A stretch of DNA of 64,000 nucleotides from Dehalococcoidia bacterium (GTDB taxonomy: Bacteria; Chloroflexota; Dehalococcoidia; Plut-88900), in assembly GCA_965197645.1 (NCBI GenBank), contig OZ240219.1:1856001-1920000 (forward strand), given 5' to 3'. The notes beneath the pieces are model-generated. The model was not told where the DNA came from. It worked only from the letters and a program-made list of their open reading frames with translations, and ran no database searches. This document shows, piece by piece, positions 44,284 to 64,000 of this stretch. Position 1 is the first letter of the stretch. Each line of letters starts with the position of its first letter. The position numbers and the translations under genes were made by a program.

Positions 44284-44375
<92 letters not shown>

Positions 44376-44531
44376 ACTACCCTTCCGACCCCGTCTTCTG
44401 TTGTCCCGTACTGCCCCTAGTTCATAGCTAAACAGCGTCGATCTATGCTCATTCAAGCCTTATGATTCCCCTGCTATCCAGCGTCAAATGTGGTAAAATA
44501 TGTGGGAAGACTTTTTGCAGAGGACGACCTT

Positions 44532-45776
44532 ATGGAGCTATCGGCGACGCGGATCAAGGCACTAAGGAAACCAGGGAGATACTCCGACGGCGGAGGTCTG
44601 CACCTATACATCAGCAAGGCGGGACGCAAATCTTGGGTCCTGCGAATCACCATAGACGGACACCGACGCGATATCGGACTGGGAGGATTTCCGGCCGTAG
44701 GCTTGGCCAGGGCTCGCGAGAAGGCGTCGCAGGACAGGGCTGCAGTAGCCAACGGTCGGGATCCTCTGGCCGAGAAGCACGCGCCTCCGATGCCGACCTT
44801 CAGGGAGGCCGCCCACGCTGTCCACGAGGCCAACAAGCCACGCTGGAAAAACCCCAGGCATGCAGCCAACTGGATGCAGACGTTGGAGCGTCATGCCATG
44901 CCGGCACTGGGCAACACGCCGTTGGACCATATAGACCGGGGCGAGGTGCTCGGAGTCCTCAAACGGATATGGACGTCCAGGCCGGAGACGGCCCGAAGGG
45001 TGCGTCAACGGATGAGGACCGTCTTTAGGTGGGCCATGGCTCACGGTTTCATCGAAACCAACCCGGCAGGGGAAGCCATCGACGGAGCCCTGACGCCCAT
45101 GCCCAAGGTGAAGGCACACTTTAGAGCGCTGCCATACCAGGAAGTCGGGGCTGCTTTTGAAACCGTTGAAGCATCCCCGGCCTCAATGTCGGCCAAATTG
45201 TGCTTCCGGTTCCTGGTCCTCACGGCGGCCCGCTCAGGAGAGGCCAGGGCCGCCGCCTGGGACGAGATCGACTTCGATGACCAGGTATGGCGGATACCAC
45301 CGTCGCGGATGAAAGCCGGTTTGGAGCACCGGGTGCCCCTCAGCAGGAAGGCCCTCGAGGTGCTTGACCAGGCTTCTGTCTTGCGTGACGAGACCGGCCT
45401 GATATTCCCATCTCCGCGGAAGTGGAAGACCCCCATGTCCGATATGACGCTGACGAAGGTCCTCCGCACCGTCGGCCTAGCGGAACGTGCCACGGTCCAC
45501 GGGTTCCGCAGCAGCTTCAAGAACTGGACCCTGGAACAGACGGATACATCCTGGGCCGTCTCGGAGGCGGCACTGGCTCATACCCTGGGCAATTCGACTG
45601 AACAGGCCTATGCGAGGTCCGATCTGTTCGAGCAGCGTCGTGAGCTTATGCAACTCTGGGCGGACTACCTGACGAAAGGCCGGGATGGTGCAGCAGCTAC
45701 CCCGACGATGCCTAGGCCGCTTTCGTCGCGTCAAACTCGCCCGTCGCAACTGGCCGGGACTCCAGCCAGGCTGTGA
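44532..45776 (+). CDS. P4-like tyrosine integrase with arm-binding domain
   Basis: YSDGGGL.L, GLGGFPAV.LA.AR, TAARSGE, MKAG.EHRVPL, HGFRSSF, LAH, AY.RSD. Confidence 0.95.
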   Translation: MELSATRIKALRKPGRYSDGGGLHLYISKAGRKSWVLRITIDGHRRDIGLGGFPAVGLARAREKASQDRAAVANGRDPLAEKHAPPMPTFREAAHAVHEANKPRWKNPRHAANWMQTLERHAMPALGNTPLDHIDRGEVLGVLKRIWTSRPETARRVRQRMRTVFRWAMAHGFIETNPAGEAIDGALTPMPKVKAHFRALPYQEVGAAFETVEASPASMSAKLCFRFLVLTAARSGEARAAAWDEIDFDDQVWRIPPSRMKAGLEHRVPLSRKALEVLDQASVLRDETGLIFPSPRKWKTPMSDMTLTKVLRTVGLAERATVHGFRSSFKNWTLEQTDTSWAVSEAALAHTLGNSTEQAYARSDLFEQRRELMQLWADYLTKGRDGAAATPTMPRPLSSRQTRPSQLAGTPARL

Positions 45777-50393: not shown

Positions 50394-50688
50394 GATGGGT
50401 CCTCCTTCCTCCTAGCGATTCGTACAATTGACGTCATGGAAAACCCCCTTCTGAGGCAGTGCGTAGCCTTGGCACGGCAATGAGGAAGGTTTCCGAATCC
50501 GATTGTCGGCCACGGTGTCTTGATTCGGATCAAATATGCCCTATCGCTCATTTGGCCTCAGTTAGCACCGTGTGATACTAGTCGGTAGGGTGTCCCGGTT
50601 GTTGGGACCACCTACGTACCCCGATGTTGTGGCGTTGATAGATGTTAGTATAGATGCTACAATTCTGACATTCAAGGGAGTCGTGCCG

Positions 50689-51286
50689 ATGCCGAGTTCG
50701 CCGGAACAAATCATGACCTACGCCACCACTCAGCCCGAAGGCGCGCTGCTGCATCCGAAAGTGCTGCTGCACTTGGGGAGCAGAGCAGCCATAGACCAGG
50801 CGTTGTCCCGACTCTCCAAGAAAGGAAGATTGATACGAGTCTGCCACGGCACCTATGTATGCCCCGTGGAGACCTGCTTCGGTCCTCGCCCGCCTGCCGT
50901 GGAGAAGGTGATCGCCTCGCTGTCGGCTCTATGGGGCGAGACGATAGTGACCTGTGGCGGCACTGCGGCGAACGCCCTTGGGCTCACTACCCAAGTTCCG
51001 GTCAAGTCAGTTTACCTCACATCCGGACCCAATCGCGAGCTGACGCTTGGCGAGTTGACAGTGGAGCTGCGCCATGCCCCCCCGTTGGCAGCTGGCGGCC
51101 CCGCACCGACCTGCAGGCGAGGCGGTTCGCGCATTGTCCTGGCTGGGGCCTGATGAAGTGGAGTCGGGTTTGGACGTAATTTGGCGCAGGCTCTCCGCCG
51201 AAGACCTTGAGGAGTTGGCGGCTTTGCGGGCAATCATGCCAACTTGGATCGCCGAACCCGCAAGTGCATTGGTTGCCAATGGCTGA
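50689..51286 (+). pseudogene. DUF6088/AbiEi-like antitoxin, frameshifted in a C7 tract
   Basis: GSRAAIDQALSRL..G.LIRV..G.Y, AANALGLTTQVP...VYLTSG; continues in another frame (RWQL...RALSWLG...PTWIA) after 51077-51083. Confidence 0.8.
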
Positions 51287-51327
51287 AGCATACCTTTCGA
51301 TCAATACAGATAGGGAGGACATCGCGG

Positions 51328-52788
51328 TTGACCATCGACGCCGCCATTCGTGAAGGCCAGGTACTCACCGGGCCGTTGTTCAATGAGCCTATGCGTGTGG
51401 AGACCGTGCGTCCAAACGGTCCTGATTCCGTGGAGGCAGGACTGGTCGGGCAGCGGACCGAGCGGTTTCGGCGGGTTACGTTGACTTCAATAGACCTCGC
51501 GGACTTGACCATCGCCGATGCCACTTGGCCTTATGACGGCGACGGAAGTCTGTTGAAGCTCGGTCTTCAAGCCTATTCCCTCGGCATCGCCCACGAGTTC
51601 GACCCCTACTTCGGCCTATCCATCTCGCGAGTGGACCCGTTACCCCACCAGCTTGAAGCGGTCTACGAATACTTCATGAAGCTCCCCAGCGTGAGGTTTC
51701 TGCTGGCAGACGACGCTGGAGCCGGCAAGACTATTATGGCTGGGTTACTCGTCCGCGAGCTCAAGCTCCGGGGTCTTGCCGAGAGGATACTCGTAGTGTG
51801 CCCGGCGAACCTGGCCTTTCAGTGGCAACGGGAGTTGAAGGAGAAGTTCGATCAACAGTTCCTGGTGTTGAAAGGCGGCGACATCCGCGACCAGTTCGGC
51901 GTCAACCAGTGGCTGAGCCAGAAGCAGGTCATCACGTCCCTAGACCTCGCCAAGCGCGAGGACATCTTGCCGGGATTGAGGCAGGTTCGCTGGGATCTCG
52001 TGATCGTAGATGAGGCGCACCGCATGTCGGCGAGCGACGAGACGCACAAGAGCCAACGTTACAGGCTCGGCGAGCTTCTGAGGGACAGCGCGGACAACTT
52101 GCTGTTGTTGACCGCAACCCCCCATAAGGGTGACCCGCACAACTTCACGCTCTTCCTACAACTCCTCGACCGGGACGCCTACGCCGACGTGAAGTCCATC
52201 CGCGAGGCGATGGAACGGCGACGGGCACCCTTCTATCTACGAAGGACCAAAGAGGCGATGGTCTACTTCCCGGAGCGGCAGCCCGACGGGGCTTGGGCAG
52301 CGCAACCGGTCTTCACCAAGCGGATCACCCGTACGGCCGACTTCGCCATCGATGGAGACGAGTTCAAGCTATACGAGGAGGTCACCAGGTTCGTAAAGAG
52401 GCAGAGCGCACGCGCCGCTGCGCAGGGCGACGACCGGCGCGCCCGCGCGGTCGGGTTCCTCATGTCACTGTACCAGCGGCGGCTCGCCTCCAGCGCCTAC
52501 GCAATGCGCCGGTCGCTGGAGAACCGGGCAAGGCGGCTGGACGAGGGCCTGAAGCAGGCCCAGGACGTGGCGCGGTCGGCACCGCCCGACCTCCCTGATT
52601 TGGAGGATTTGGAGGAGCTGGAAGACGCCGAGCGCGAGCGTCTTGAGCGAATGCTGGAAGCGGTCACGCTGGCCGGCAATGCCGAGGAGATGCTGCCGGC
52701 TCCACCCGGACTGGCGCTCATTCGAACACCGCGATACGCCAATCGCAAGTGTTACAGACCTACCGCCAACCCGCTAAAAGTGAATTAG
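51328..52788 (+). pseudogene. SNF2-family helicase, C-terminal helicase domain missing
   Basis: PLPHQLEAV, LLADDAGAGKT, DEAH, LTATPH, RRLASS; recognisable similarity ends near 52690. Confidence 0.8.
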
Positions 52789-53164: not shown

Positions 53165-54133
53165 CTAGACCACCACAATACGAAACTGATGGATCTGAGT
53201 GCCAAAGCTCAGTAAGTCCACCTCCTTCTGTTCTCGCGTGCCAGTATGCAGGATGATCATGTCCACATCGGTGGACTCTCTAACTTTAGGGCGCTCGAAT
53301 ATCCTCAGCCCTCTTCCAATCCGGAATACACTTCCGTCGAAGCGAATGTGCCTGTCGTGAGCGTACTTTCTGAAGTCCGCCTCTTGAAAGAGGAGGACCT
53401 GGACCAATTTGATGCCATTGCCGTTCAGCCTGGCCACCTGCGACCTTATTTTACCCTCGGTGACTTTTGCTCCTTTGGAAGAGGGATCAATGGACGAGTA
53501 AATGGTCACACGACATCTCTTCGCGTCTCGGTCAAGAAAGTTGAATAGGCGAAACAACCCACTTATATTGTTATCCCGTGTGGCGTATTGATCTACAATT
53601 ATGGCTTCCCTTGAAAACTTTGCTATTCTTTGAAATCGCTCCGTCCAGACGTCTCCTATTGCCTCACCAACGCTAATCGCTGTAGTGCTGAGCATTTCTG
53701 AGTTCGAGAATCTCGCGGATACGTCTATATCCCATAACCTGATACCTTCAACTTGCCCAAAATATCTACTCTCGCCGTTGGGTATGTCCAAATCAAAGGC
53801 TCGAGTGTCTTCCAATATAGCGACTTCAAACTCGCTTTCGAATACTGCCAAGGAATCAGAACTGTCTACTTGGTCCCAGTCAAATGAGATGCCATCATTT
53901 GGAATCCATCGGTACGAATTTCCGTTGTTCTTGATCGCCTTCTCCCATGCCATTGTCCAGTGTTTCCTTGGGGCTGGAGCAAGCGCCGCGATCGCCTTTG
54001 CCAAGGCAGGATCGCCTCGTCGAGGGTACACTAGCATTCCAAAGCGTTGCCACCTGTCCAAGAGCCTAATTATGTGTGCGGGGCTCGCAGAGTCATTCAC
54101 CGCTTCGTCTTGAATTGCGAACTGCACCAACAA
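53165..54133 (-). CDS. Uncharacterised protein with PLD/MIT_C-like C-terminus
   Basis: IIVDQY...HDRHIRF...IGRGL.IF; downstream of ATPase, same lower GC. Confidence 0.6.
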   Translation of the reverse strand: MLVQFAIQDEAVNDSASPAHIIRLLDRWQRFGMLVYPRRGDPALAKAIAALAPAPRKHWTMAWEKAIKNNGNSYRWIPNDGISFDWDQVDSSDSLAVFESEFEVAILEDTRAFDLDIPNGESRYFGQVEGIRLWDIDVSARFSNSEMLSTTAISVGEAIGDVWTERFQRIAKFSREAIIVDQYATRDNNISGLFRLFNFLDRDAKRCRVTIYSSIDPSSKGAKVTEGKIRSQVARLNGNGIKLVQVLLFQEADFRKYAHDRHIRFDGSVFRIGRGLRIFERPKVRESTDVDMIILHTGTREQKEVDLLSFGTQIHQFRIVVV

Positions 54134-54145
54134 ATGCTCTTCTCC

Positions 54146-55693
54146 CTACGCCATGAGTTCGCCAAAGCCATCCTCGAAAAAGCCATCCGGCCATTCGTCA
54201 ACAAAGTCCCCCTTATCATTGAGACGAAGTCGATATATCGCGCTTCCCTCTGTTTCAGGTGCATTCGGATCCACATAAAGTATCGACACGTCAGAGGGAT
54301 CCAGTGTACCTTCACGGATTCGGCGTTGAAGTCGCAAAATTAGCAATTCGCTGTGGGTCTCAACAATCCACTGCTTTTGGCCCCGACCGGCGATATTCGC
54401 AATCATGAGGTCAGCTAAATGTGCCTGAAGCCTTGGATGGAGGTGAATCTCAGGTTGTTCGACGCAAAGAACGCGGTCTTCACGCCCAGTAAAGAAATCA
54501 ACACCCTCTACAATCACGGGCAAAATCTGATTTATGCCAAATCCGACGTCGGCGAGACTAACAGGCGTTTTCGAGGAGCGGTCGATCAGAACCAGAGCTA
54601 TATGCTCACCTGACACAGCTATATCGCCAAATCTTCTAACGTCCAGTTCATAGGGTATTTGGAATCGCTCGAACCAATCATTCACAATATGGATGAGTCC
54701 AGGCTGATAGTACAACCTGTGATGGGTAAATTCTCCTCTCAACCCTGAAAAGTAGCTATCCACGCCTGGAACCTTGTAGAGTCTTTCTGGATAACTTCTG
54801 AGCGGCCCTAAGTATCTGACCTCGCTGAGTTGGTCTTTGAATGATATCGGCATACCCTTTAAGGCAAGCATCTGCTCCAAATGCAGCGTGCTTTCCAATG
54901 CCTTTAGGAGTTCTGGGTCGGGCTGACGGTTGAGGGCCTCCATTGTCGCTTGCGTTCTAGACAAATCCCTGTCAAGAGGCGGAAGTCTTTCTAGTTCCTC
55001 CTCAGACATGCTAACTAACTCTCTGTAGCGCTGTTGTTGTCGGTCCTGCTCCAACTGCCTGAGTCTTGCGCGCTCTCGAACGAGGCCACGTTCTCGTTCG
55101 GGCAACTGGGCCTCGTTTTGCTCTATCAGACGCTCTAATTCCAACAGCTTCAACTCTGGCAAGAAGCGTAGTTCCAACCCAAAGTCAAGAACCTTGTAGA
55201 TGCCAAACGTGTCCGCGACGGAGACATGAGCGTCCCACCAACTGCCACCAGAGCTGTCCAATCTCGCTTCTGCAAGTAGTGTACCTTCACTGCCGATCTG
55301 ATACGTCACTTCAGACAGAGCTGCGGAATCTTCCAGATACTCTTCTCCTTTGGCATCTATGTCTGTCACGCCATGAAATGACATGTTGGCACTAAGGTAG
55401 GAATCATCGTGCCCATAGGTCATCCTGATGCCAAGTCGCCTCTCTTGGTTGTGGTTGTGGAGCAGAGCGACGTGACTGCCGAGGTCAACGTATTCTCCTC
55501 TCGTGACCAGACCCCAAATCGTGGCAGCGGCTCCGGCTTCCAATGCTGACTGCTTGAGCATCAGAATCGCTTGGATGATTGAACTTTTGCCGCCAGAGTT
55601 GGGACCGTATATGAGGGTTATTTTGGATAGTGGTGCTCTCTGTTCCATGTCACCAAATGCCTTAAAGTTTCTCAACCCAAGTTCAAATAGCAT
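54146..55693 (-). CDS. ABC-type (AAA_21) ATPase with DUF3696 C-terminus
   Basis: NFKAF, YGPNSGGKSS, YLGPLR, DVGFGINQILP, EQPEIHLHP, ETHSE, WPDGFFE. Confidence 0.9.
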   Translation of the reverse strand: MLFELGLRNFKAFGDMEQRAPLSKITLIYGPNSGGKSSIIQAILMLKQSALEAGAAATIWGLVTRGEYVDLGSHVALLHNHNQERRLGIRMTYGHDDSYLSANMSFHGVTDIDAKGEEYLEDSAALSEVTYQIGSEGTLLAEARLDSSGGSWWDAHVSVADTFGIYKVLDFGLELRFLPELKLLELERLIEQNEAQLPERERGLVRERARLRQLEQDRQQQRYRELVSMSEEELERLPPLDRDLSRTQATMEALNRQPDPELLKALESTLHLEQMLALKGMPISFKDQLSEVRYLGPLRSYPERLYKVPGVDSYFSGLRGEFTHHRLYYQPGLIHIVNDWFERFQIPYELDVRRFGDIAVSGEHIALVLIDRSSKTPVSLADVGFGINQILPVIVEGVDFFTGREDRVLCVEQPEIHLHPRLQAHLADLMIANIAGRGQKQWIVETHSELLILRLQRRIREGTLDPSDVSILYVDPNAPETEGSAIYRLRLNDKGDFVDEWPDGFFEDGFGELMA

Positions 55694-55894: not shown

Positions 55895-56731
55895 TCAAAC
55901 TCCACAGTGTCCCTCGCACTCGTTGCCGAACCCGTCGGCCTGTCCGTCTGCTTCCAACTAGCTCTCGTCATATACGACCGCTTCGTCCAGGGGCCTCCGC
56001 AGCATGTGCAGATAGGGAGTCTTCTGCAGGGCCAGTCCGCCCCGCAACCTGGCGTCGATCTCGACGGCCTCGGCAAAGAGCTCGGGCCACCTGCGCTTGG
56101 TCTCCACCCACCTTGCGCGTGACTGGAAGGGGCAGGCGGCGCAGGCCGAGCGTTCAAGGGGCCTGTCGTACCGGGCCGTCCACCAGTCGGCGAAGTCCCT
56201 CCGGGACATGCCCGCGTCGATGAGCGGGTAGCGGTTCGTTATCCACCGGTCGCGCTAGGTCTTCATGCGGATGGCCTCGTCGGTGGATATGCTCAACCAT
56301 ATCTCGACAGTGGTTCCGGCGGGGACGCGCTGCTTCGGTTTCAGTCCCAGCATATCCCGTATCCTGCGGCGTATGGGCTTGACCTTGTAGTTCTCGGTGC
56401 ACTGCCGCTTGCCGATACCATCTGCCTCGCCATCGCCTCCCTTCAGATAGACTGGGATGTCCACGTAGTTGCGGTGACCCGAGTGGCTGGTGAGGGTCTT
56501 CACGTCCTCGCGGAGGCTGCGCCCGTTGTCCACGACGTACAGGGGGAATCCCAGCCGGTCCCCGAGCCACTCGACGTGCTCGTAGACGCTGGGCGGCTCC
56601 CAATGGGTATCGGCGAAGATGGCGCAGTCCGGCACCCGGCCGAACGCGCCCTCTCGGGCCATGAGGGCCATGACGGAGGACTGGACGCCTCCGCCCAGGC
56701 TGAGCACGGTGAGGGTGGGAGGTGCGTTCAT
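55895..56731 (-). pseudogene. PP-loop (PAPS reductase/adenine nucleotide alpha-hydrolase-like) protein with two in-frame TAG codons
   Basis: SLGGGVQS, FADT..E, RQCT..YK..P, YPL, SAC..CPF, terminal FGNECEGHCGV*; TAG at 56255-56257 and 55958-55960, frame otherwise intact. Confidence 0.8.
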
Positions 56732-56937
56732 TGGGGCTCCTCCCCGCCGCCGTCCTCGGCAGCCTCAGGCAGGGACCCTGCCTCCTTCTTCCGCATGTAG
56801 GAGCGGATGGCCACCCGCGCCCAGATGCGCACGCCCCTGCGGACCAGCCTCCGCTGCTCCGGGGTTAGGGACGCGGGCGGCCAGGCCGGCGAGTCCTCGG
56901 GCCTGTCCTCCTCGTTCTGTCTGCTGGTATCTTTCAT
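56728..56937 (-). CDS. Small hypothetical mobile-element protein
   Basis: 69-aa ORF coupled (ATGA overlap) to the PP-loop gene. Confidence 0.55.
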   Translation of the reverse strand: MKDTSRQNEEDRPEDSPAWPPASLTPEQRRLVRRGVRIWARVAIRSYMRKKEAGSLPEAAEDGGGEEPQ

Positions 56938-57007
56938 GGTGCATAGTCGCAGCGGCGGTAGTTGGGCCGCTGGCCTCTCATTGGCGGTGTGCGGCGGGGC
57001 CGTTGGT

Positions 57008-57337
57008 CTAGCTGTCCTCCTTGAAGAAGCTCATCTGGAAGCTCTCGGTAACGAGGATCGCCATCCCTCCGGGTATCCGGGCTGCGAAGCGGAAGATGGC
57101 GTGCATGGCCCAGCCGGAGGGCTGGACGCCGTTGCGCCACCTGTGGACCAGCTTGGGGTCCACGCCGATGGCCCTGGCGAATGCAGCCCACGTGAGGCCG
57201 CTGACCTCGTGCAGCCGTTCGAGGCGCTTGGGGAAGTCCTCCGCCAGCGCGACGGCCTGGAGCACCAGGTCCTGTTCCTCGTCGTCGAACTGTTCCATGG
57301 TCCCGTCGAGACGGGACGAATCGGTTTGGCTAGTCAT
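57008..57337 (-). CDS. XRE-type HTH protein, paralogue of 46637-46972
   Basis: EDFPKRLERL..VSGLTWAAFARAIGVD...V.RWRNGVQPSG. Confidence 0.75.
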   Translation of the reverse strand: MTSQTDSSRLDGTMEQFDDEEQDLVLQAVALAEDFPKRLERLHEVSGLTWAAFARAIGVDPKLVHRWRNGVQPSGWAMHAIFRFAARIPGGMAILVTESFQMSFFKEDS

Positions 57338-57604
57338 CTCTATCCTCCATCGTGAAGAGTTGGTCGAAGTCGTCGAAGTCCAGGGCTCTGAGCATCCGGC
57401 GGCGGATGCGCCCGGAGGGCGTGCGCCCCGCGTTGACCAGCATCGAGATGTAGCCGGGGCTGACCCCGACCTCCCTGCGAGCCAGTTCTGGGAGCGGTTC
57501 AGCAGTGTGAGCCGCTCCCAGAGGGCCGCCGTGTCGAGCCGGACAACGGTCCGTCCTCCACGCCTCCGGGGGCCTTTCTTCCTGTCTTGGTCTTGTGAAC
57601 GCAT
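57330..57604 (-). pseudogene. Cro-like HTH (1-bp deletion), paralogue of 46959-47225
   Basis: ALWERLTLLNRSQNWLA / EVGVSPGYISMLVNAGRTPSGRIRRRM in the next frame. Confidence 0.7.
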
Positions 57605-57670
57605 GGCTTCACGTCTCCTCTGGGGAAGAGAGCGCGAGCCGTCGCGCCGCTTCCCCGTGTCAGTGGTCGG

Positions 57671-59023
57671 TCATTGAGGGGGCATGGCCTGGGGCGACTG
57701 CCAGTCGCCCGGGGAGCGCCATGCGCGTCCCAGCGGCCCCAGCTGCTCGATGGCGGCCTTGTGGGAGACCCACAGGGGCACCGTCAGCCCTCTGGCCTGC
57801 ATCTCCTCCCGCGCCAGGCGCAGGAAGTGGGTCTGGACGATCTCGTCGTCGAAGACGATGAGGACGGAGGGCCGCGTGCCGTGGTCGTCGGTGGGCCGGT
57901 GGGAGGATAAGTAGCGCAGATAGGGGGCGAGGCGCTCGGACATGGTCGAGGGCCGCACGGCCCTTCGCTCCCACTCCAGCAGGAACGGCCATGCGGTTTC
58001 GCCCTGTCTGAGGACGCCGAAGGCGTCGGGGTTGACCGAGCGCATCCCGTCGCCGTGCCTGAAGTGTCGAGAGGCCCTGCGGGGCGGGTCGACCTGGGAG
58101 ACCTCCCACTCCAGGAGGCCCGCCTGCACGGTCATGGCCGCCAGAAAGGAGTGGACGGCGGCGGTGTGCTCGACGTTCCTGAGCAACTGGCGGCTCCTCG
58201 CGCCGGCCACGTTGTCCCAGACGAACGGCGTGCCGGGGAACAGGGGAGCGGCGCTCCAGCGCCTCCTCGCCACGGTCACCGAGGTGCGGTCCCTGCGGGC
58301 CAGGAGCGACAGGGCCCGGTTGGTGAGGGTCATGCGCCCGCTCCCGGCGATGGGCCGGGCGACGAGGCGGAACCCTTCCAGGGGCGTCACCAGCTGGGAC
58401 GCTCTGGGCGGGGACACACCCATGAGTCCGGCCAGGTCCGTCAGGGCGATCCAGGGCCAGTCGGAGATGAGGTAGAGGGCCCGCTTCTCGGCGGGCTTGA
58501 GGGTGGCGGGGAGCAGATAGTCGGAGATCCTCCATCCCGGACCCTCGACGGAGAGGTCGGCGGTGACCGAGGCCATCTGGAGCTCGTCCTCCTCGGGAAG
58601 GGGGATTCCCTCCTCTATCCGGTCGAGGACCGAGCGCAGCTCGACGGAGGCGCTGACGGCGGACGGACTCCACGCCGGGTCGTCCGGCGACGCCGCAACG
58701 GCCGCGCGCTCGACGGCGAGGTAGATGGGCACGGGTGCGCCGGTCAGCGTCCTGCGGACGTGCCGGAGCCGGATGGGGTCGGCCGTCAGCACGAGCACCG
58801 CTCCGGGGAGCTCCCCCTGTCGCAGCCTCCACATCCGGTTGGAGAAGGAGGACCTGTCGGCGGTGAGCCCCTGCCTGACGATGCCGACGGTGCGGCCGCC
58901 GGGGAGCTCGACGGCGGCGTCCAGGGGCGATGCCCTGTACCAGCGGAAGCCTATCGGGTATGCGACGGCGGAGACGGAGACGGCCAGCCGGTAGATGGAT
59001 GCAAGGGAGTCGAGCCGTCCCAT
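57671..59023 (-). CDS. Replication-relaxation (Replic_Relax-like) protein, probably 5'-truncated
   Basis: H..AV..F, PDAFGVL...FLLEWER, RL..Y..Y; frame extends upstream (SAQWRRNL) into the FN3 gene end. Confidence 0.7.
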   Translation of the reverse strand: MGRLDSLASIYRLAVSVSAVAYPIGFRWYRASPLDAAVELPGGRTVGIVRQGLTADRSSFSNRMWRLRQGELPGAVLVLTADPIRLRHVRRTLTGAPVPIYLAVERAAVAASPDDPAWSPSAVSASVELRSVLDRIEEGIPLPEEDELQMASVTADLSVEGPGWRISDYLLPATLKPAEKRALYLISDWPWIALTDLAGLMGVSPPRASQLVTPLEGFRLVARPIAGSGRMTLTNRALSLLARRDRTSVTVARRRWSAAPLFPGTPFVWDNVAGARSRQLLRNVEHTAAVHSFLAAMTVQAGLLEWEVSQVDPPRRASRHFRHGDGMRSVNPDAFGVLRQGETAWPFLLEWERRAVRPSTMSERLAPYLRYLSSHRPTDDHGTRPSVLIVFDDEIVQTHFLRLAREEMQARGLTVPLWVSHKAAIEQLGPLGRAWRSPGDWQSPQAMPPQ

Positions 59024-60123
59024 CAGGTTGCGCCGCCACTGGGCGGAGCCGGGGCGGTCGCGCTCCAGCTCAGGAGGACGCCGCCGCCGGGCCCGTCGTC
59101 TCCGGCCAGGTCCGCGGGCGGCGCCAGGGCCGTGACGGTCAGGGTGTCGGAGAGCTCGCTCATCGACCCGGCGGTGCGGGACCGCACGGCATAGACATAG
59201 GTCGCTCCGGCGGAGGCCGTCAGGTCGGTCCAGGACGTGGCCGTGTTTCCGGTGTCGCGCACGAGCGGCGCCAGGGACTCGGCGTCGGGACCCCGCAGGA
59301 TGCGGTACCCCGTGACCTCGCCGGCGGCGGAGCCCTGCGGCTCGTCCCAGCCCAGCGTCACGCGGCCCTCCTCGTCGAAGGAGGAGGCCAGCCCCGGCGG
59401 GGCTGGCAGGTCCGGGTCGACGGCGGGCGCCGCCGTGGTCACGGAGAAGGCGTCCGAATCCGGCCCCGGCCCCAGGTCGTTCAGGGCCGTCACCCTATAG
59501 GCGTAGGTAGTCTCCGGGCTGAGGCCCGCGTCGGCGTACTCGGTGAGGGTGGAGCCGGTGTCGCTCGCTACCGTCTGCTCCGGCCCGTCGCCGGAGGAGC
59601 GCGTGACCCGGTATCCCGTGACCTTCGAGTTCGGGGGGGCCTCCCATCGCAGGGTCGCCCGATCGCCCGTGACCCCGGAGAAGGTCGGGCCGGTGGGCTG
59701 CCCCGGCAGGCCGTACGAGACCCGTCCGGTCACCTCCGCGAAGGGGCCGCTCCACTGCGGTCTGTGCACGGGCCGCAGGTACCGGGCCCGCACCCGCACC
59801 CGGTACTCGGTGTCCTCCTGCAGCCCCCTGATCTTTCTGAACTACAGCGTCGTGTAGTGGTTGAATTCGTCGTCCCGCCACGTGGGGACCGGGTCCCCTA
59901 CCTTGTGCCACACCAGCCTGTAGTCGCTGGGCCGCGGCTCCGTGCCGTCCCACTCGACCAGCAGGATTCCCGGCTCCGGGCTGGACGCCCTGAGCCCGGT
60001 GACCTCTCCCGCGGGCGGGTTCTCGGGCTCCTGGGCCTGCGCCGCCGCGGCGAAGGCCCCGCCGAAGATCGCCACGGCCAGCGCCAGGGCCGCCAGGACG
60101 GCCCACCGCCGGGAGCGCAGCAT
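59023..60123 (-). pseudogene. Secreted fibronectin type III repeat protein, in-frame TAG and truncated
   Basis: Signal peptide AQA; repeats W..P...VTGYR..R, GL.P.T.Y.YRV.A.N..G; TAG 59842-59844 in frame; ends mid-domain. Confidence 0.8.
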
Positions 60124-60200
60124 TCTTAGACCCCCCAAGGGGGGGAGCCTCTGCCGCGGTCTGAGAGCGAGATTATGGTCAAGGTAGGGTTCCTCCAGTT

Positions 60201-60875
60201 ATGGCTTTGCGGAAACAGCGAGCGGGCCGGGGGTTCGGCACGGGTGGCCGCCGGCCCTCTATCTTCAGAAGGCGGTCGAGGCCGGGGGACTCGACGGCGG
60301 ACGGAGGGCAGGCGCGGGACGGCGTCGAGGCGGTGAGGATGGCGCAGCGGGTCGAGCCCGACGTCATCGTCATGGACGTGATGATGCCGGGCAAGGACGG
60401 CGTCGACGCCTGCCGGGAGATCATGGAGGAGCTGCCGAACGTCCAGGTGCTGATGCTCACGGCCTCCACAGCAGAGGATGCCGTGATCGAGGCCGTGGCC
60501 GCGGGCGCGACGGGCTACCTGCAGAAGCACTCGGGGCCGGAGGACCTGGCGGTCGCGATTCGGGACCTGGCCCAGGGGCGCCTGCGCATACCGGACCGGT
60601 ACATACGGCGGGTCTTCGCCATGATCAGGGGCCAGCGCGGTCTCGGCGGCGGGCGGACCCTGGAGTCGATAAAAGACCGGGAGAGGGAGATCCTGAGGCT
60701 GTTCGCCGGCGGCAGGTCATACGCGCAGATCGCCGAGACCAGGGGCACCAAGGCCTCGACCATCAAGAACGCGATCTACCGCATCCAGGAGAAGCTGGGG
60801 GTCGAATCCAAGCAAGAGGTCGTCGTCTGGGCGGTGCGAAACGGCCTGCTGGACGAAGCGGAGCAGGCCGGATGA
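60201..60875 (+). CDS. NarL/LuxR-type response regulator with damaged N-terminus
   Basis: ARDGVEAV, PDVIVMDVMMP..DG, LTAS, GATGYL.K, RE.EIL...GRSY.QIA; first receiver strand (VDDH) not visible. Confidence 0.75.
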   Translation: MALRKQRAGRGFGTGGRRPSIFRRRSRPGDSTADGGQARDGVEAVRMAQRVEPDVIVMDVMMPGKDGVDACREIMEELPNVQVLMLTASTAEDAVIEAVAAGATGYLQKHSGPEDLAVAIRDLAQGRLRIPDRYIRRVFAMIRGQRGLGGGRTLESIKDREREILRLFAGGRSYAQIAETRGTKASTIKNAIYRIQEKLGVESKQEVVVWAVRNGLLDEAEQAG

Positions 60876-60908
60876 GGACGGTGAGGAGCTCGCGGTCCAG
60901 GGAGCGGC

Positions 60909-61754
60909 ATGCCCATCCCTGAGCGGACACGGTCACGGTGGAGCCATCATCGTGCAGCGACGGCCTTCACGCAGGCGCACGTGCCCATCCGGAAGGCGAT
61001 GGATGAGCACAAGGGGCTGTCGCAGTTCAATTTTGAGGTCTTCCTCCAAGGGTCGTACAAGAACGACACCAATCTCGGTGGGGACAGCGATGTCGACGTG
61101 GTCATGCGGTTGGCCTCGAAGCTCAAACCCCGCATGGCCGTCCCAACAGGGAAGCAGTTAAAGAAAGACGTTTCCCACAAGGTGGCACACCAAAGATGGA
61201 AGTCATTCCATGACGAAGCGTTGAAGGCGATGAGGGCCGCGTATGGTAAGGATGCGAGCAGCGGCCGCAAGACCATCAAGGTCGCGAAGGGCAAGATACA
61301 GGCCGACGCCGACCTCGTGGTGACGCTGAGCTACAGGGAGGGCATAGCATTCTACCTCTCAGACGAGGGACGCTGGGTGGTGAGCTATCCGCAGCAGCAC
61401 CATCAGCGAGGGTCGAAGAAGGAGAAGACCACCGGCGGGCGGTTCAAGAGGGCGGTCCGGATGTTTAAGGCGGCCCGCAACAGGCTGATCGAGAAGAAGG
61501 TTCTCACCAAGGACGACGCGCCCTCCTATTTCATCGAGTGCCTGTTGTATAACGTTCCCGACAGGCTGTTCAAACCGAAGCTGGCGCCGACCTTTACGGG
61601 CATCATCGGCTGGCTGAAGACAGCTGAGCTCGATGGTTTCCAGTGCCAGAACAGGAAGGTGGCGTTGTGCGGGCCTGGAAAGGAGCAGTGGTCGGTGAAG
61701 AAGACGCGGGCGTTCGTCAGGGCGCTGCAGGGTCTGTGGGAGGCGGGGGGGTGA
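60909..61754 (+). CDS. cdnE: cGAS/DncV-like nucleotidyltransferase, clade E (CdnE-like)
   Basis: MPIPE....WSH, FLQGSYKNDTN..GDSDVDVV, GRKTIKV, ADLVV, RWVVSYP..H...G..K, RMFK.AR, PSYFIECLLYNVPD, F.CQN, EQWS; collinear with CdnE enzymes as recalled. Confidence 0.88.
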   Translation: MPIPERTRSRWSHHRAATAFTQAHVPIRKAMDEHKGLSQFNFEVFLQGSYKNDTNLGGDSDVDVVMRLASKLKPRMAVPTGKQLKKDVSHKVAHQRWKSFHDEALKAMRAAYGKDASSGRKTIKVAKGKIQADADLVVTLSYREGIAFYLSDEGRWVVSYPQQHHQRGSKKEKTTGGRFKRAVRMFKAARNRLIEKKVLTKDDAPSYFIECLLYNVPDRLFKPKLAPTFTGIIGWLKTAELDGFQCQNRKVALCGPGKEQWSVKKTRAFVRALQGLWEAGG

Positions 61755-61840
61755 GAATGGAAGTCTCCTACGGGCGACCATGGCGTGATAGCGGTTGGGC
61801 TGCTTATCCCAACTGAAGACACCCTTAGGAACGAGAATCC

Positions 61841-62842
61841 ATGAGCAATATAGGTCGAGAACACATCATCGAGGTTCCGGGACTACCGGCTGAATTGCAG
61901 GCCACCGCTAAGGAGGACATCGGCAGGTTACTGGGCGCAATCGCGGGAGTGGCCGACAGACAGGGGAAGCAATTCCTGTTGGACAGGGTCCGTCTCTCCG
62001 ACCGCTTTGAAGATGACGTGAACCGGTTCCTCGATGACCGTTCAGGTCTTAAGGGGTATGTCGCTGCCCGGCGCAATGCCCACGCGATTGGCAAGACCAT
62101 TTGGACTCGCTCCCAGCAAGGGAACAACCGTTTTGTGGTGATTATCGATGCGAGTCAGATCGGCCCGTGGGCGATCACCAATGCTCGGTGCCTGACTACC
62201 GTCCTGCACGAGCTCGTCCATGTGCTCCGAGAAGAGCGTCATCTGGAGCGGCTGGGGGAACAAGAGTACACCGCGGACAGAGACACTAGGGAGCGGTGGC
62301 TGGACGGTTGGGCCAGCTTGCTTCTCGATGAATTCGATGTGGACCGACTGGTGGACGTCATAGTTAACGGGCTAGCTACGAAGGATGACGGACAACCCTG
62401 GTCCTTGCGAGAGCTCGATGAGGCTCAGGGACTGGATTGGGTTCACGGGTTGCTGAATACTCTCGATCGCTTGCCACAGTTCGTAGACGAAGAGGTCTGG
62501 AAGTTTCGGACTTGGGAAATGGGGATCGACGACCTTGCCCTGTCGGTGATTCCTTATATCAAGGACGTACTTAGGTTGCTGAGCCACACCGCTGCGAGGT
62601 ACATGGGAACTGATCGTTGGCCAGACATCGTTGAGCGAATCAAGGAGACGGACGCCTCTCAGCGGTTCCTGAGGGAACACCTTGATACCGTCCTTGCCCA
62701 TCTCGATGATGCGCAGTTGCCCCTGGAGGAGTCCATTCGAATCGTTGGTCAAGCAGTGGAGGGGATGTTCCAGAACTGCGGATTTGGGTTTCGGACAATC
62801 CCCCGGGGTGTGTACATCTCAGTCGGGGAGCCGTCGGGTTAG
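61841..62842 (+). CDS. Uncharacterised zincin-like (HEXXH) protein
   Basis: TTVLHELVHV with downstream DEFDVDR (candidate third ligand); no TM segment or signal peptide. Confidence 0.65.
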   Translation: MSNIGREHIIEVPGLPAELQATAKEDIGRLLGAIAGVADRQGKQFLLDRVRLSDRFEDDVNRFLDDRSGLKGYVAARRNAHAIGKTIWTRSQQGNNRFVVIIDASQIGPWAITNARCLTTVLHELVHVLREERHLERLGEQEYTADRDTRERWLDGWASLLLDEFDVDRLVDVIVNGLATKDDGQPWSLRELDEAQGLDWVHGLLNTLDRLPQFVDEEVWKFRTWEMGIDDLALSVIPYIKDVLRLLSHTAARYMGTDRWPDIVERIKETDASQRFLREHLDTVLAHLDDAQLPLEESIRIVGQAVEGMFQNCGFGFRTIPRGVYISVGEPSG

Positions 62843-63153
62843 TTGGCAGGCGCGAGGATTGAATCACGTCATAATAACTTGGTTTCCGCGGCAAGCTGGT
62901 AGAGGACGGGAGCAGCCCGAGGCTCATATTCGTCGAGCCCCGCATGAGCTACAGGATACCGAGGGCCGAGGGGGATGAAGAGTCAAAGGAATCGTAGCTC
63001 GATGTGCTTCGTGGCGCCGCGTACCCTCCGCTGTTATGGGCCACGAGGGTCGGGGCGAAGGTTCGATGGACTTTCAGACCTCCAGCCTCTCTCTAGGGCC
63101 GTTGAACGGTGGGCGCCTCTACGCATTCTTGGGGCGACGACTCGCAGCGGCCT

Positions 63154-63732
63154 CTAACGTCGGGAGCGTCTATTATTCAACAGGGCTTGGTGCTGTTTCG
63201 CCACACCGGTAACTTCCAATCTGTACTTGGCCATTCTCTCGCTAACTCCGCACTTACTGGCGATGTCGTTCGCGCTCGATCCCCGGCGGACTTCTGCCAC
63301 TAGTAGTGCGCGGGGTAGGAGGAGGCAACCGGAGAGCCACGCCGCCTCGTCTTCCTGGGTCGCGTCACCCGACAGGAAGGTGACATCGCCAATTCGCTCT
63401 ACTCGGCTCAACTCGTGATCGAGGAGAGCGTGCGCGAGTTCGTGCGCAATATCACTCCTCCGGCGTGTCGCTCCCGAGCGGGGATTGTAGACTACGACCG
63501 TGCGATCGGGCGAAGGTCGGAGAGTGCATGCCGAGAAGGAATCGGGCTGAATGTCGTCGAGATAGTTGAACCGCTCTCGCGGGATCAGCTCGTCGCCTGC
63601 CCGGACCTCTATACCCAACAATTCCGCGAGAACTTCGGGCGCAACGGATTGGGTGGCGCCCATTCCTAACTCCGTTCGCACATCCCTCGCGATTCTCTCA
63701 GCCTCGGACTTAAACCCTCTCCGCAGAGCCAT
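63154..63732 (-). CDS. ImmA/IrrE (CapP-like) metallopeptidase
   Basis: RRGFKSEAERIA, FSA, R.RSDIAHELAH, QEDEAAWL.G.LLLPR, GVS..MA.YR. Confidence 0.88.
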   Translation of the reverse strand: MALRRGFKSEAERIARDVRTELGMGATQSVAPEVLAELLGIEVRAGDELIPRERFNYLDDIQPDSFSACTLRPSPDRTVVVYNPRSGATRRRSDIAHELAHALLDHELSRVERIGDVTFLSGDATQEDEAAWLSGCLLLPRALLVAEVRRGSSANDIASKCGVSERMAKYRLEVTGVAKQHQALLNNRRSRR

Positions 63733-64000
63733 CGGCGGATTCCTCCAGGAGCGCTTGATTCAGGTCGTTCAGCAACGCGCTCAGCGCACGAGCGGCTTCA
63801 GGGCGAAAGGTCTTCGCAGCCCGCAGATGCACGGCGGCAACATCCCCAGGCCGAACCAGGGCTTGATAGAGGTCGCCGACAATGTCTGCGATTCGTTCTG
63901 CGGCTTCCGGAGGGAGGTTTCGGTCTGCACGAAGGTGCTCAGCGATCACGTCGGTCGTAGCGGTCGCCCTCTCTTGGTTCTCGAAGAACTGCTTGATATC
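63710..64000 (-). CDS. Probable HTH regulator partner (3' part only)
   Basis: VIAEHLRADRNL..EAAE.IA.IV..LY; overlaps the peptidase start; N-terminus outside window. Confidence 0.65.
   Translation of the reverse strand, partial: DIKQFFENQERATATTDVIAEHLRADRNLPPEAAERIADIVGDLYQALVRPGDVAAVHLRAAKTFRPEAARALSALLNDLNQALLEESADGSAERV

Follow-up and report, generated by a model that had tools for sequence, protein, structure and literature searches.

An effector-less CdnE lineage and a zincin-like protein family side by side in a Chloroflexota defense island

We analyzed a 64,000-nucleotide stretch of the genome of a Dehalococcoidia bacterium (Chloroflexota; NCBI GenBank assembly GCA_965197645.1, contig OZ240219.1, positions 1,856,001 to 1,920,000; hereafter the window), in which a gene for a CD-NTase of the CdnE lineage is followed on the same strand by a gene for a 333-aa protein with an HExxH motif. 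The original prediction took this pair either for a new type of cyclic oligonucleotide-based antiphage signaling system (CBASS), with a zinc metallopeptidase as its effector or regulator, or for a cyclase used in signaling outside defense. Our analysis points, with a probability of roughly 0.5, to another reading, in which both genes are cargo of a defense island linked to a tRNA-Ser gene, are mobile independently of each other, were joined once, and do not form a dedicated cyclase-effector system. We favor independent cargo because genes for the 333-aa family mostly occur without a cyclase, because the closest relatives of the cyclase have variable neighbors, and because the canonical effector of its lineage is gone. 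Two points would be new here, neither of which is established: an effector-less subclade of CdnE cyclases, marked by a serine in the lid and a glycine or alanine at the carboxyl terminus, and a family of zincin-like proteins. The proposed new CBASS type was not borne out.

The window's own genome (G000, of which the window is C1 1856001-1920000) is a single contig of 3.21 Mb with a GC content of 0.61, and is 94% complete. Relatives of the genes studied stem from MAGs (metagenome-assembled genomes) of Chloroflexota/Dehalococcoidia. Fetched comparison loci and comparison genomes are numbered below with the prefixes L and G, respectively, and the locus in the window is called WIN.

The cyclase has the complete active site of a CdnE-type enzyme

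The cyclase gene (60909-61754, + strand) encodes 281 aa. It lies 33 bp behind a LuxR-type open reading frame (ORF) and 86 bp ahead of the gene for the 333-aa protein, and the ORFs and spacings first claimed were reproduced exactly. Its predicted assignment to the CdnE-type CD-NTases was supported by an alignment, a tree, and two matches: one to the PADLOC cyclase model PDLC00788 (E 3.5e-76, residues 1-278) and one to its best solved relative, 6e0k, with which it shares full-length homology (E 4.4e-61, residues 1-279). Matches to other CdnE structures lay at E 7e-26 to 3e-21. The NCBIfam equivalog model NF053871 (“DS2_2 anti-phage nucleotidyltransferase”) gave 213.4 bits, which is under its curated cut-off of 350, and a literature search on the model name “DS2_2” found nothing relevant.

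All of the catalytic motifs that had been reported for the cyclase are present, and G48-S49 (61050-61055), D61 and D63 of the DxD motif (61089-61097), and the third aspartate, D135 (61311-61313), are invariant in a 25-row alignment of relatives. The serine noted at the specificity position (VVSYP), Ser159 (61383-61385), lies in the sequence RWVVSYP and aligns with the lid asparagine of RWVVNYP in 6e0k. The shortened loop noted at LSYREGIAF corresponds to 13 residues that are absent after LSYR, compared with 6e0k and with all relatives that are linked to a two-transmembrane (2TM) effector. The protein ends in WEAGG (61743-61751). PMC10442399 identifies 6e0k as RmCdnE, states that RmCdnE makes cUMP-AMP and its N166S variant mainly c-di-AMP (cAA), and assigns the characterized CdnE operons to type I CBASS with Cap15, a 2TM effector. 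From the N166S variant of RmCdnE, we infer by analogy that the cyclase in the window would make a cyclic dipurine such as 3'3'-c-di-AMP.

A subclade of these cyclases has lost the 2TM effector

Among 401 genomes sampled from the phylum, seven (G000 included) contained a match to the cyclase, and only G000 held a member of the subclade to which it belongs. The six other genomes contributed seven loci, with cyclases 32-41% identical to that of the window, and a gene for a protein of ~195-217 aa was found directly downstream at each of them (7/7). All six of these loci that were scanned matched the 2TM effector model PDLC00703 of PADLOC (E 1e-50 to 8e-62). A metagenome scan added 80 cyclase loci, for which the presence of the effector was assessed by tblastn with seven 2TM queries. 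At up to 43% identity, a 2TM gene stood directly downstream in 57 of 62 loci, and three of the five misses end within 20 nt of a contig end. At 51-72% identity, neither a 2TM gene nor a gene for the 333-aa family was found in any of 18 loci, nine of which hold at least 300 nt downstream.

In a maximum-likelihood tree, the close relatives of the cyclase form one clade (support 100/100) on a stem of 0.94. The 13-residue deletion and the lid serine, where other cyclases have asparagine, are found throughout this subclade, and the GS, DxD, and third aspartate motifs are intact. The ratio of nonsynonymous to synonymous substitution rates (dN/dS) within it is 0.11-0.33, which indicates purifying selection. 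The neighboring genes are unrelated to one another, and include, by their Pfam matches, DUF6615, a KAP NTPase, HTH_17, an aminotransferase, GerE, RR-LuxR, an RpoA-CTD/sigma protein, and a radical SAM protein. Six genomic loci represent the subclade (WIN, L002, L142, L143, L144, and a second copy in G000), and a gene for the 333-aa family was present only in WIN and L002. The second copy in G000 is 71% identical to the cyclase of the window and is frameshifted between codons 36 and 37. Downstream it is followed, on the − strand (G000 1341153-1346552; L029 2153-7552), by a gene for a DruA homolog (Pfam DruA, E 3.5e-85; PADLOC DruA, E 3.4e-138) and one for a 991-aa protein without a family match. 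A third copy in G000 is truncated and of the canonical type.

The claim that no known CBASS effector lies beside the cyclase held up, as the scanned flanks contained no patatin, SAVED, NucC, STING/TIR, or 2TM gene and no full Cap2 or Cap3. Nor did the 2TM family PDLC00703 have a match in G000, G402, G403, or G408, in a search that recovered the positive controls G045 and G080. Since a 2TM gene follows nearly all of the more distant relatives and none of the metagenomic subclade members, and since the subclade is monophyletic on a long stem, we regard it as a lineage that lost its 2TM effector. Judged by its sequence, the cyclase is a member of an old, conserved, effector-less CdnE lineage. It shares its catalytic motifs and the PADLOC model PDLC00788 with the 2TM-linked relatives, and thereby resembles type I CBASS with Cap15, as in the operons of RmCdnE, ClCdnE, EfCdnE, and LpCdnE. 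Unlike these systems, the genome of the window has no 2TM effector and a zincin-like gene lies downstream; unlike the RmCdnE lineage, the cyclase has a lid serine, a 13-residue loop loss, and a Gly/Ala tail. In the literature searched on orphan or effector-less CD-NTases, we found no description of this subclade; operons of this kind could be listed in the supplements of CBASS surveys.

The downstream gene encodes a zincin-like protein without a described family

The gene behind the cyclase (61841-62842, + strand) encodes a zincin-like, probably cytoplasmic protein of 333 aa of the gluzincin type. The pattern HELVH...DEF that had been seen in it was reproduced; H123, E124, and H127 form the HExxH motif (62207-62221), and E164 is a candidate third ligand (62330-62332). 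All four residues are invariant in 27 homologs, and their conservation in 30 distant family members is at least 90%. As predicted, the protein belongs to no described family: it had no match in Pfam, PADLOC, NCBIfam, or PHROGs, nor, by sequence, in the PDB. Homologs are nonetheless numerous, with 112 full-length or partial sequences, most of ~333 aa and 41-86% identical, and with ~222 members at E<=0.001, nearly all of 315-360 aa, in a profile search of 1.84 billion cluster representatives. No Pfam domain was found in the 30 distant members. The predicted solubility was supported too, as the highest 19-residue Kyte-Doolittle mean is only 1.06, which argues against a transmembrane segment. A dN/dS of 0.09-0.29 indicates purifying selection on this gene.

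In an AlphaFold2 model (pLDDT 89.5), the HExxH motif and E164 lie on helices 115-143 and 150-178. In thermolysin-like and M1-type gluzincins, too, the motif and an invariant glutamate lie on successive helices, and we infer that E164 is a metal ligand. In an exhaustive VIA-align search, zincin peptidases, aligned over residues 3-310, filled almost the whole of the first 50 rows; the best Z was 8.5 (root-mean-square deviation 4.6 over 192 residues). The catalytic domains of M1 aminopeptidases scored 7.5-8.5 and thermolysin 6.7, a range of Z that the tool calls common, that is, middling; other matches were to LTA4 hydrolase, collagenases, lethal factor, M30, M36, and YbeY. Foldseek searches with the model against the PDB and BFVD gave nothing at E<=0.001, matches in the ESM Atlas were to “hypothetical protein” clusters only, and a pattern search of viral contigs found no relatives. 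No match to the nucleotide-sensor families SAVED, CARF, and STING was found with Pfam or PADLOC. On the strength of the predicted fold, we read the 333-aa protein as a single-domain, cytoplasmic, gluzincin-like metallopeptidase with no separate sensor domain. Unlike the gluzincins it resembles, it matches no Pfam peptidase family by sequence, and on these searches it founds a zincin-like family without a Pfam model, i.e., a new family in a known superfamily (hereafter the zincin family).

Proteases with related motifs or roles were compared with it. A relationship to CapP and other M78 peptidases beyond the HExxH helix was rejected, as the protein has no Pfam M78 match, its hhalign match to the neighboring M78 protein (probability 43%) spans only 40 columns, and no adjacent helix-turn-helix (HTH) gene lies on the same strand. 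Lit is a stand-alone HExxH abortive-infection protease. This “cell death peptidase” of the Escherichia coli element e14 is similar in size (297 aa vs. 333 aa), in its HExxH motif, and in its location in an integrated element, and is a possible analog for the way a lone defense protease might work; no homology to it (U49) was detected beyond 15 columns around HExxH (hhalign probability 2.9%), and Pfam Peptidase_U49 gave no match. No match to the JAB/JAMM family was found in Pfam or PADLOC, so that any likeness to Cap3 would be functional only. In the literature searched, we found neither a precedent for a metallopeptidase as CBASS effector nor this zincin family.

Zincin genes lie at the ends of diverse defense operons

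Genes of the zincin family were found at 23 genomic loci in 22 MAGs, all from Chloroflexota, and the family is so far known almost only from MAGs of this phylum. Three of 25 zincin loci lie behind a CD-NTase operon (the window, L002, which has the same two-gene block, and L006); at the other 22, the nearest 8 kb are free of CD-NTases. In 13 of the 22 genomes, the cyclase of the window had no match at E<=1e-5. Where a subclade cyclase and a zincin are both encoded, they may be far apart: ~562 kb in G401, 48 kb in G403, and at least 365 kb in G408. The co-occurrence of the two genes, proposed beforehand as a check of the new CBASS type, came to one of 23 other zincin loci (L002) and none of the 18 metagenomic subclade loci.

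Neighbors with a PADLOC match at E<=1e-5, among them MTase_II, HKD with Snf2, REase_III, and MkoA, were found at six of the first ten zincin loci scanned. The genes around the zincins are those of defense and mobile elements: an MTase_II-like protein of 913-941 aa, Mrr_cat, HKD with Snf2, REase_III with a NACHT-like ATPase, MkoA-like helicases, and a large serine recombinase, which is a recurrent neighbor. The family sits at the 3' end of diverse defense operons (restriction-modification, helicase, CBASS) in islands or integrative elements of Chloroflexota. About one-fifth of the copies look disrupted. One of these (L009, 4715-8831) is split, with residues 1-63 encoded 3.1 kb upstream of residues 56-332 and three ORFs of ~300 aa in between, which looks like an insertion into the gene. 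At L013, L014, and L019 (7107-8981 in each), two tandem zincin paralogs of 270 aa and 339 aa follow genes for a NACHT-like ATPase of 907 aa and a type III restriction enzyme (PADLOC REase_III, E 1.4e-159). The CBASS at L006 (3771-9002, MAG contig CAXXWW010000011.1) is of type II, with TIR (181 aa) and SAVED (246 aa) as separate ORFs, a CD-NTase of a different clade (PDLC00810, E 9.4e-100), and a Cap2 with one frameshift (PDLC00847, E 2.6e-128).

Sharp borders set off both genes of the window as separate modules. The alignment of WIN with L002 is one continuous blastn high-scoring segment pair (60900-62846, 78% identity) that spans both genes, starting 9 nt before the start of the cyclase gene and ending 4 nt after the stop of the zincin gene. 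With L001, L003, and L008 only the zincin gene is shared, with borders at 61825-61857 and 62842-62853; with L029, L047, L142, and L143 only the cyclase gene is shared, again with borders at the gene ends. WIN and L002 are separated by the same synonymous distance (dS), 0.61, in both genes, which fits a single joining event that was inherited by two lineages. The 86-bp spacer (61755-61840, + strand) is partly conserved in L002, with islands of conservation in the pairwise alignment. A contig from a second sample bridges the cyclase-zincin junction (61439-61876), and contigs also bridge the junction of the LuxR-type gene and the cyclase. The block is probably co-transcribed. Both genes are accessory, as neither was found intact in five other genomes of the window's family.

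The genes lie in an island behind tRNA-Ser

A tRNA-Ser(gga) gene (44284-44375) marks the start of the island that holds both genes, and is followed within 44284-45776 by a gene for a tyrosine integrase with Arm-DNA-bind_3, Phage_int_M, and Phage_integrase domains. Together, these are the likely left border of a genomic island. Its further contents include AbiEi, Replic_Relax, fragments of a serine recombinase and of a PAPS reductase, one half of an SNF2 helicase, and an AAA_15/DUF3696 ATPase together with its PLD-like partner. Several genes within it are truncated, and its GC content, which ranges from 0.49 to 0.73, differs from the genome mean of 0.61.

Three of these regions deserve mention in their own right. 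At 50572-52788 (+ strand), a gene for an AbiEi-like antitoxin or regulator (PADLOC AbiEi, E 6.7e-42) precedes one for a 514-aa SNF2 helicase, which matches only the first ~40% of the HmaA, DrmD, and BrxH models and is probably truncated; AbiEii was not seen. A low-GC (0.49-0.50) two-gene unit at 53165-55693 (− strand) is a candidate defense pair, encoding a 515-aa AAA_15/AAA_21/DUF3696 ATPase (PADLOC HEC-03B, E 8.9e-52; also PDC-M55A and NsnB) together with a protein of 322 aa that carries a PLD-like MIT_C domain. A PAPS-reductase/SspD-like fragment, a 450-aa Replic_Relax protein, and an fn3-repeat protein whose signal peptide has an ORF of its own occupy the region 56255-60138 (GC 0.67-0.73); probably left over from another mobile element, they adjoin the LuxR-type gene.

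That gene, a LuxR/NarL-type response-regulator ORF with Response_reg and GerE domains (60201-60875, + strand), has the position and type that had been claimed for the upstream regulator, but it is not intact. Its Pfam Response_reg match (E 9.5e-21) aligns residues 37-120 with profile positions 27-110, its GerE match has E 1.7e-10, and the first ~30 residues of the receiver domain are missing. Because the receiver match starts at profile position 27, paralogs in the genome align only from residue 36, and one paralog has the missing first strand (RIRVMVVDDH, with the acidic DD pair), we conclude that the gene is truncated at its 5' end. Its C-terminal part and the cyclase gene are shared with L144 as one blastn segment.

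On the other side, the survey of the flanks in the original prediction was right that none of the listed effectors and no full Cap2 or Cap3 is present, but it missed a CapP/CapH-like pair 311 bp downstream of the zincin gene, on the other strand. This pair consists of an M78 peptidase (63154-63732, − strand; PADLOC capP, E 1.2e-9; Pfam Peptidase_M78, E 1.2e-17) and an XRE-type HTH protein (63710-64000, − strand, running on to G000 1920225). In CapH-CapP pairs, an HTH repressor and an M78 metallopeptidase regulate CBASS and other defense operons. A genuine M78 and HTH pair thus lies just downstream of the zincin, but it is tied to two further genes, which encode a ThiF-family E1-like protein of 420 aa and a DUF6527 protein of 141 aa (G000 1920487-1922184; L030 8487-10184; + strand). 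Matches of the ThiF protein to E1-E2 models reach only E ~1e-6 and span 50 residues. All four genes stand in the same arrangement once more at G000 3006090-3008934 (identities: HTH 82%, M78 71%, ThiF 32%, and DUF6527 42%), whereas none of the other fetched loci of subclade cyclases or zincins has them nearby. The four genes look like a self-contained unit under its own regulation, which may be a ubiquitin-like conjugation system or a defense system. A role of the pair as CapP/CapH of the cyclase in the window was rejected, since it is divergent from the ThiF and DUF6527 genes and the four genes recur together elsewhere.

Independent cargo or a functional pair

In our main reading, the cyclase changed on the stem branch of its subclade: a Cap15-like 2TM effector was lost, the 13-residue loop deleted, the lid asparagine replaced by serine, and the Gly/Ala tail gained. 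The cyclase looks active, and the receptor for its product would be encoded elsewhere than beside it. The zincin may act as a protease in conflicts with phages or mobile elements, independently of cyclic nucleotides. Given its distribution, it cannot generally depend on a cyclase.

Several observations pull in the opposite direction. The two-gene block is kept, together with its spacer, in two genomes whose flanks differ; a scan of the + strand of the spacer found no terminator; and the zincin gene occupies the exact position of the 2TM effector in related loci. The zincin at L006 lies ~75 nt behind Cap2, in the usual place of Cap3. A position behind a CD-NTase operon at three of 25 loci may exceed what co-residence in islands alone would produce. 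The carboxyl-terminal residue is glycine or alanine in 18 of 22 subclade cyclases vs. 3 of 65 2TM-linked relatives, and Jenson et al. 2023 (PMC10097602) describe such ends as conserved solely in cyclases whose operons have both Cap2 and Cap3. The tail, a signature of conjugation by Cap2, hints at a missing protein partner, which could be a peptidase. Searches of G000, G401, G403, and G408 turned up no full Cap2. The reading also depends on genomes that are nearly all MAGs, and on gene calls in the fetched loci that were made with a greedy longest-ORF heuristic rather than a gene finder; spurious ORFs occur at high GC, for example downstream in L047 and in a 171-aa ORF in L006. The conserved block, the arrangement at L006, and the Gly/Ala tail keep a functional link between cyclase and zincin alive, and we consider such a link, whether Cap3-like or effector-like, unlikely overall.

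Its best-surviving form is that the zincin is a peptidase directed at the CD-NTase, a functional stand-in for Cap3 that trims or deconjugates the Gly/Ala-ended carboxyl terminus of the cyclase and so regulates signaling. The gene order at L006 (TIR-SAVED, CD-NTase, Cap2, zincin) speaks for it and keeps the earlier suggestion of a CBASS regulator alive, but zincins are not generally found beside CD-NTases, and the absence of Cap3 from L006 was judged from ORF inspection and PDB sequence searches only. In the window, the likeness to type II CBASS consists of the terminal AGG of the cyclase and a metalloprotease gene behind it, to which can be added the block and spacer conserved in L002 and an E1-like ThiF gene 1.6 kb beyond the zincin. 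Unlike type II CBASS, however, the genome has no full Cap2: matches to PDLC00847 in G000 cover the ThiF core only (~270-410 of 523). The ThiF and DUF6527 genes travel with their own M78 and HTH pair as a repeated module. In addition, the protease is an HExxH zincin rather than a JAB/JAMM protein, the link to Cap2 holds at only one of 25 zincin loci, and proteins upstream of zincins at other loci were not seen to end in glycine. With 22 of the 25 loci free of a nearby CD-NTase, we rate a Cap3 stand-in as rather improbable. We are a little more doubtful about the family-wide proposal that zincins are accessory CD-NTase peptidases that can replace Cap3, in which case the locus would be a CBASS-derived module of cyclase and tail peptidase, the cyclase being conjugation-competent, its output controlled by the peptidase instead of being sensed by an effector from the same operon, and its partners supplied in trans.

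Less probable still is the original prediction's first proposal, a type I CBASS of a new kind with the zincin as its effector: activated by a cyclic dinucleotide, it would cleave host or phage proteins instead of disrupting membranes. The gene is in the effector position, on the same strand and 86 bp behind the cyclase with no terminator in between; purifying selection acts on both genes, whose dS between WIN and L002 is the same; and neither 2TM nor SAVED had a match in the genome, the SAVED search having given none in the control genomes either. Against this, the zincin matches no effector or sensor model, and its structural model aligns as one thermolysin-like domain, with no SAVED, CARF, or STING match. 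Cyclase and effector are expected to occur together in type I CBASS, and here the family is mostly found without a cyclase, none of the 18 metagenomic subclade cyclases has a zincin, and even in such close genomes as G401, G403, and G408 the two genes are widely separated. Both findings that had been named beforehand as counting against a new CBASS type were made, as the neighbors of close CdnE homologs vary and the canonical 2TM effector is missing.

The second proposal, non-defense signaling, found no support and seems slightly more remote. Here the cyclase would serve housekeeping, for instance by supplying c-di-AMP under a LuxR-type regulator in a lineage without a diadenylate cyclase (DAC). 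The lid serine predicts a purine acceptor, if RmCdnE N166S, with mainly cAA as its product (PMC10442399), is a guide. The DAC domain (PF02457) was not found in G000 or five other genomes of its family, whereas 47 of 121 genomes sampled from its class carry it. Subclade cyclases in WIN, L144, and L053 have LuxR/GerE genes beside them. However, the five other family genomes, likewise without DAC, have no subclade cyclase, and a family-wide replacement of DAC by the cyclase was rejected on these grounds. The presence or absence of DAC follows family lines within the class. The cyclase is also rare (7 of 401 phylum genomes with a match, and a subclade member only in G000 among them), is present in G000 in several copies, one frameshifted and one truncated, and lies as an accessory gene in a defense island with sharp module borders, next to a LuxR gene that is itself truncated.

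It is very improbable that the cyclase is what remains, decaying and without function, of a type I CBASS after deletion of the effector: the effector loss, the damaged copies 2 and 3, and the truncated genes of the island would fit, but the catalytic residues are invariant across a subclade of 51-72% identity that is old (stem 0.94), diversified, and under purifying selection (dN/dS 0.11-0.33).

Implications for CBASS and for defense islands

CBASS is defined by pairs of cyclase and effector. Here, a whole CdnE lineage appears to have shed its Cap15-type effector while its active site stayed intact under purifying selection, and to have gained a Gly/Ala tail that is otherwise tied to operons with Cap2 and Cap3. 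This raises the questions of how a CD-NTase may act without a dedicated receptor and whether it may be conjugated in trans. The zincin family, as cargo of defense and integrative islands that is found once in the slot of Cap3, is a concrete candidate for a new defense-associated protease.

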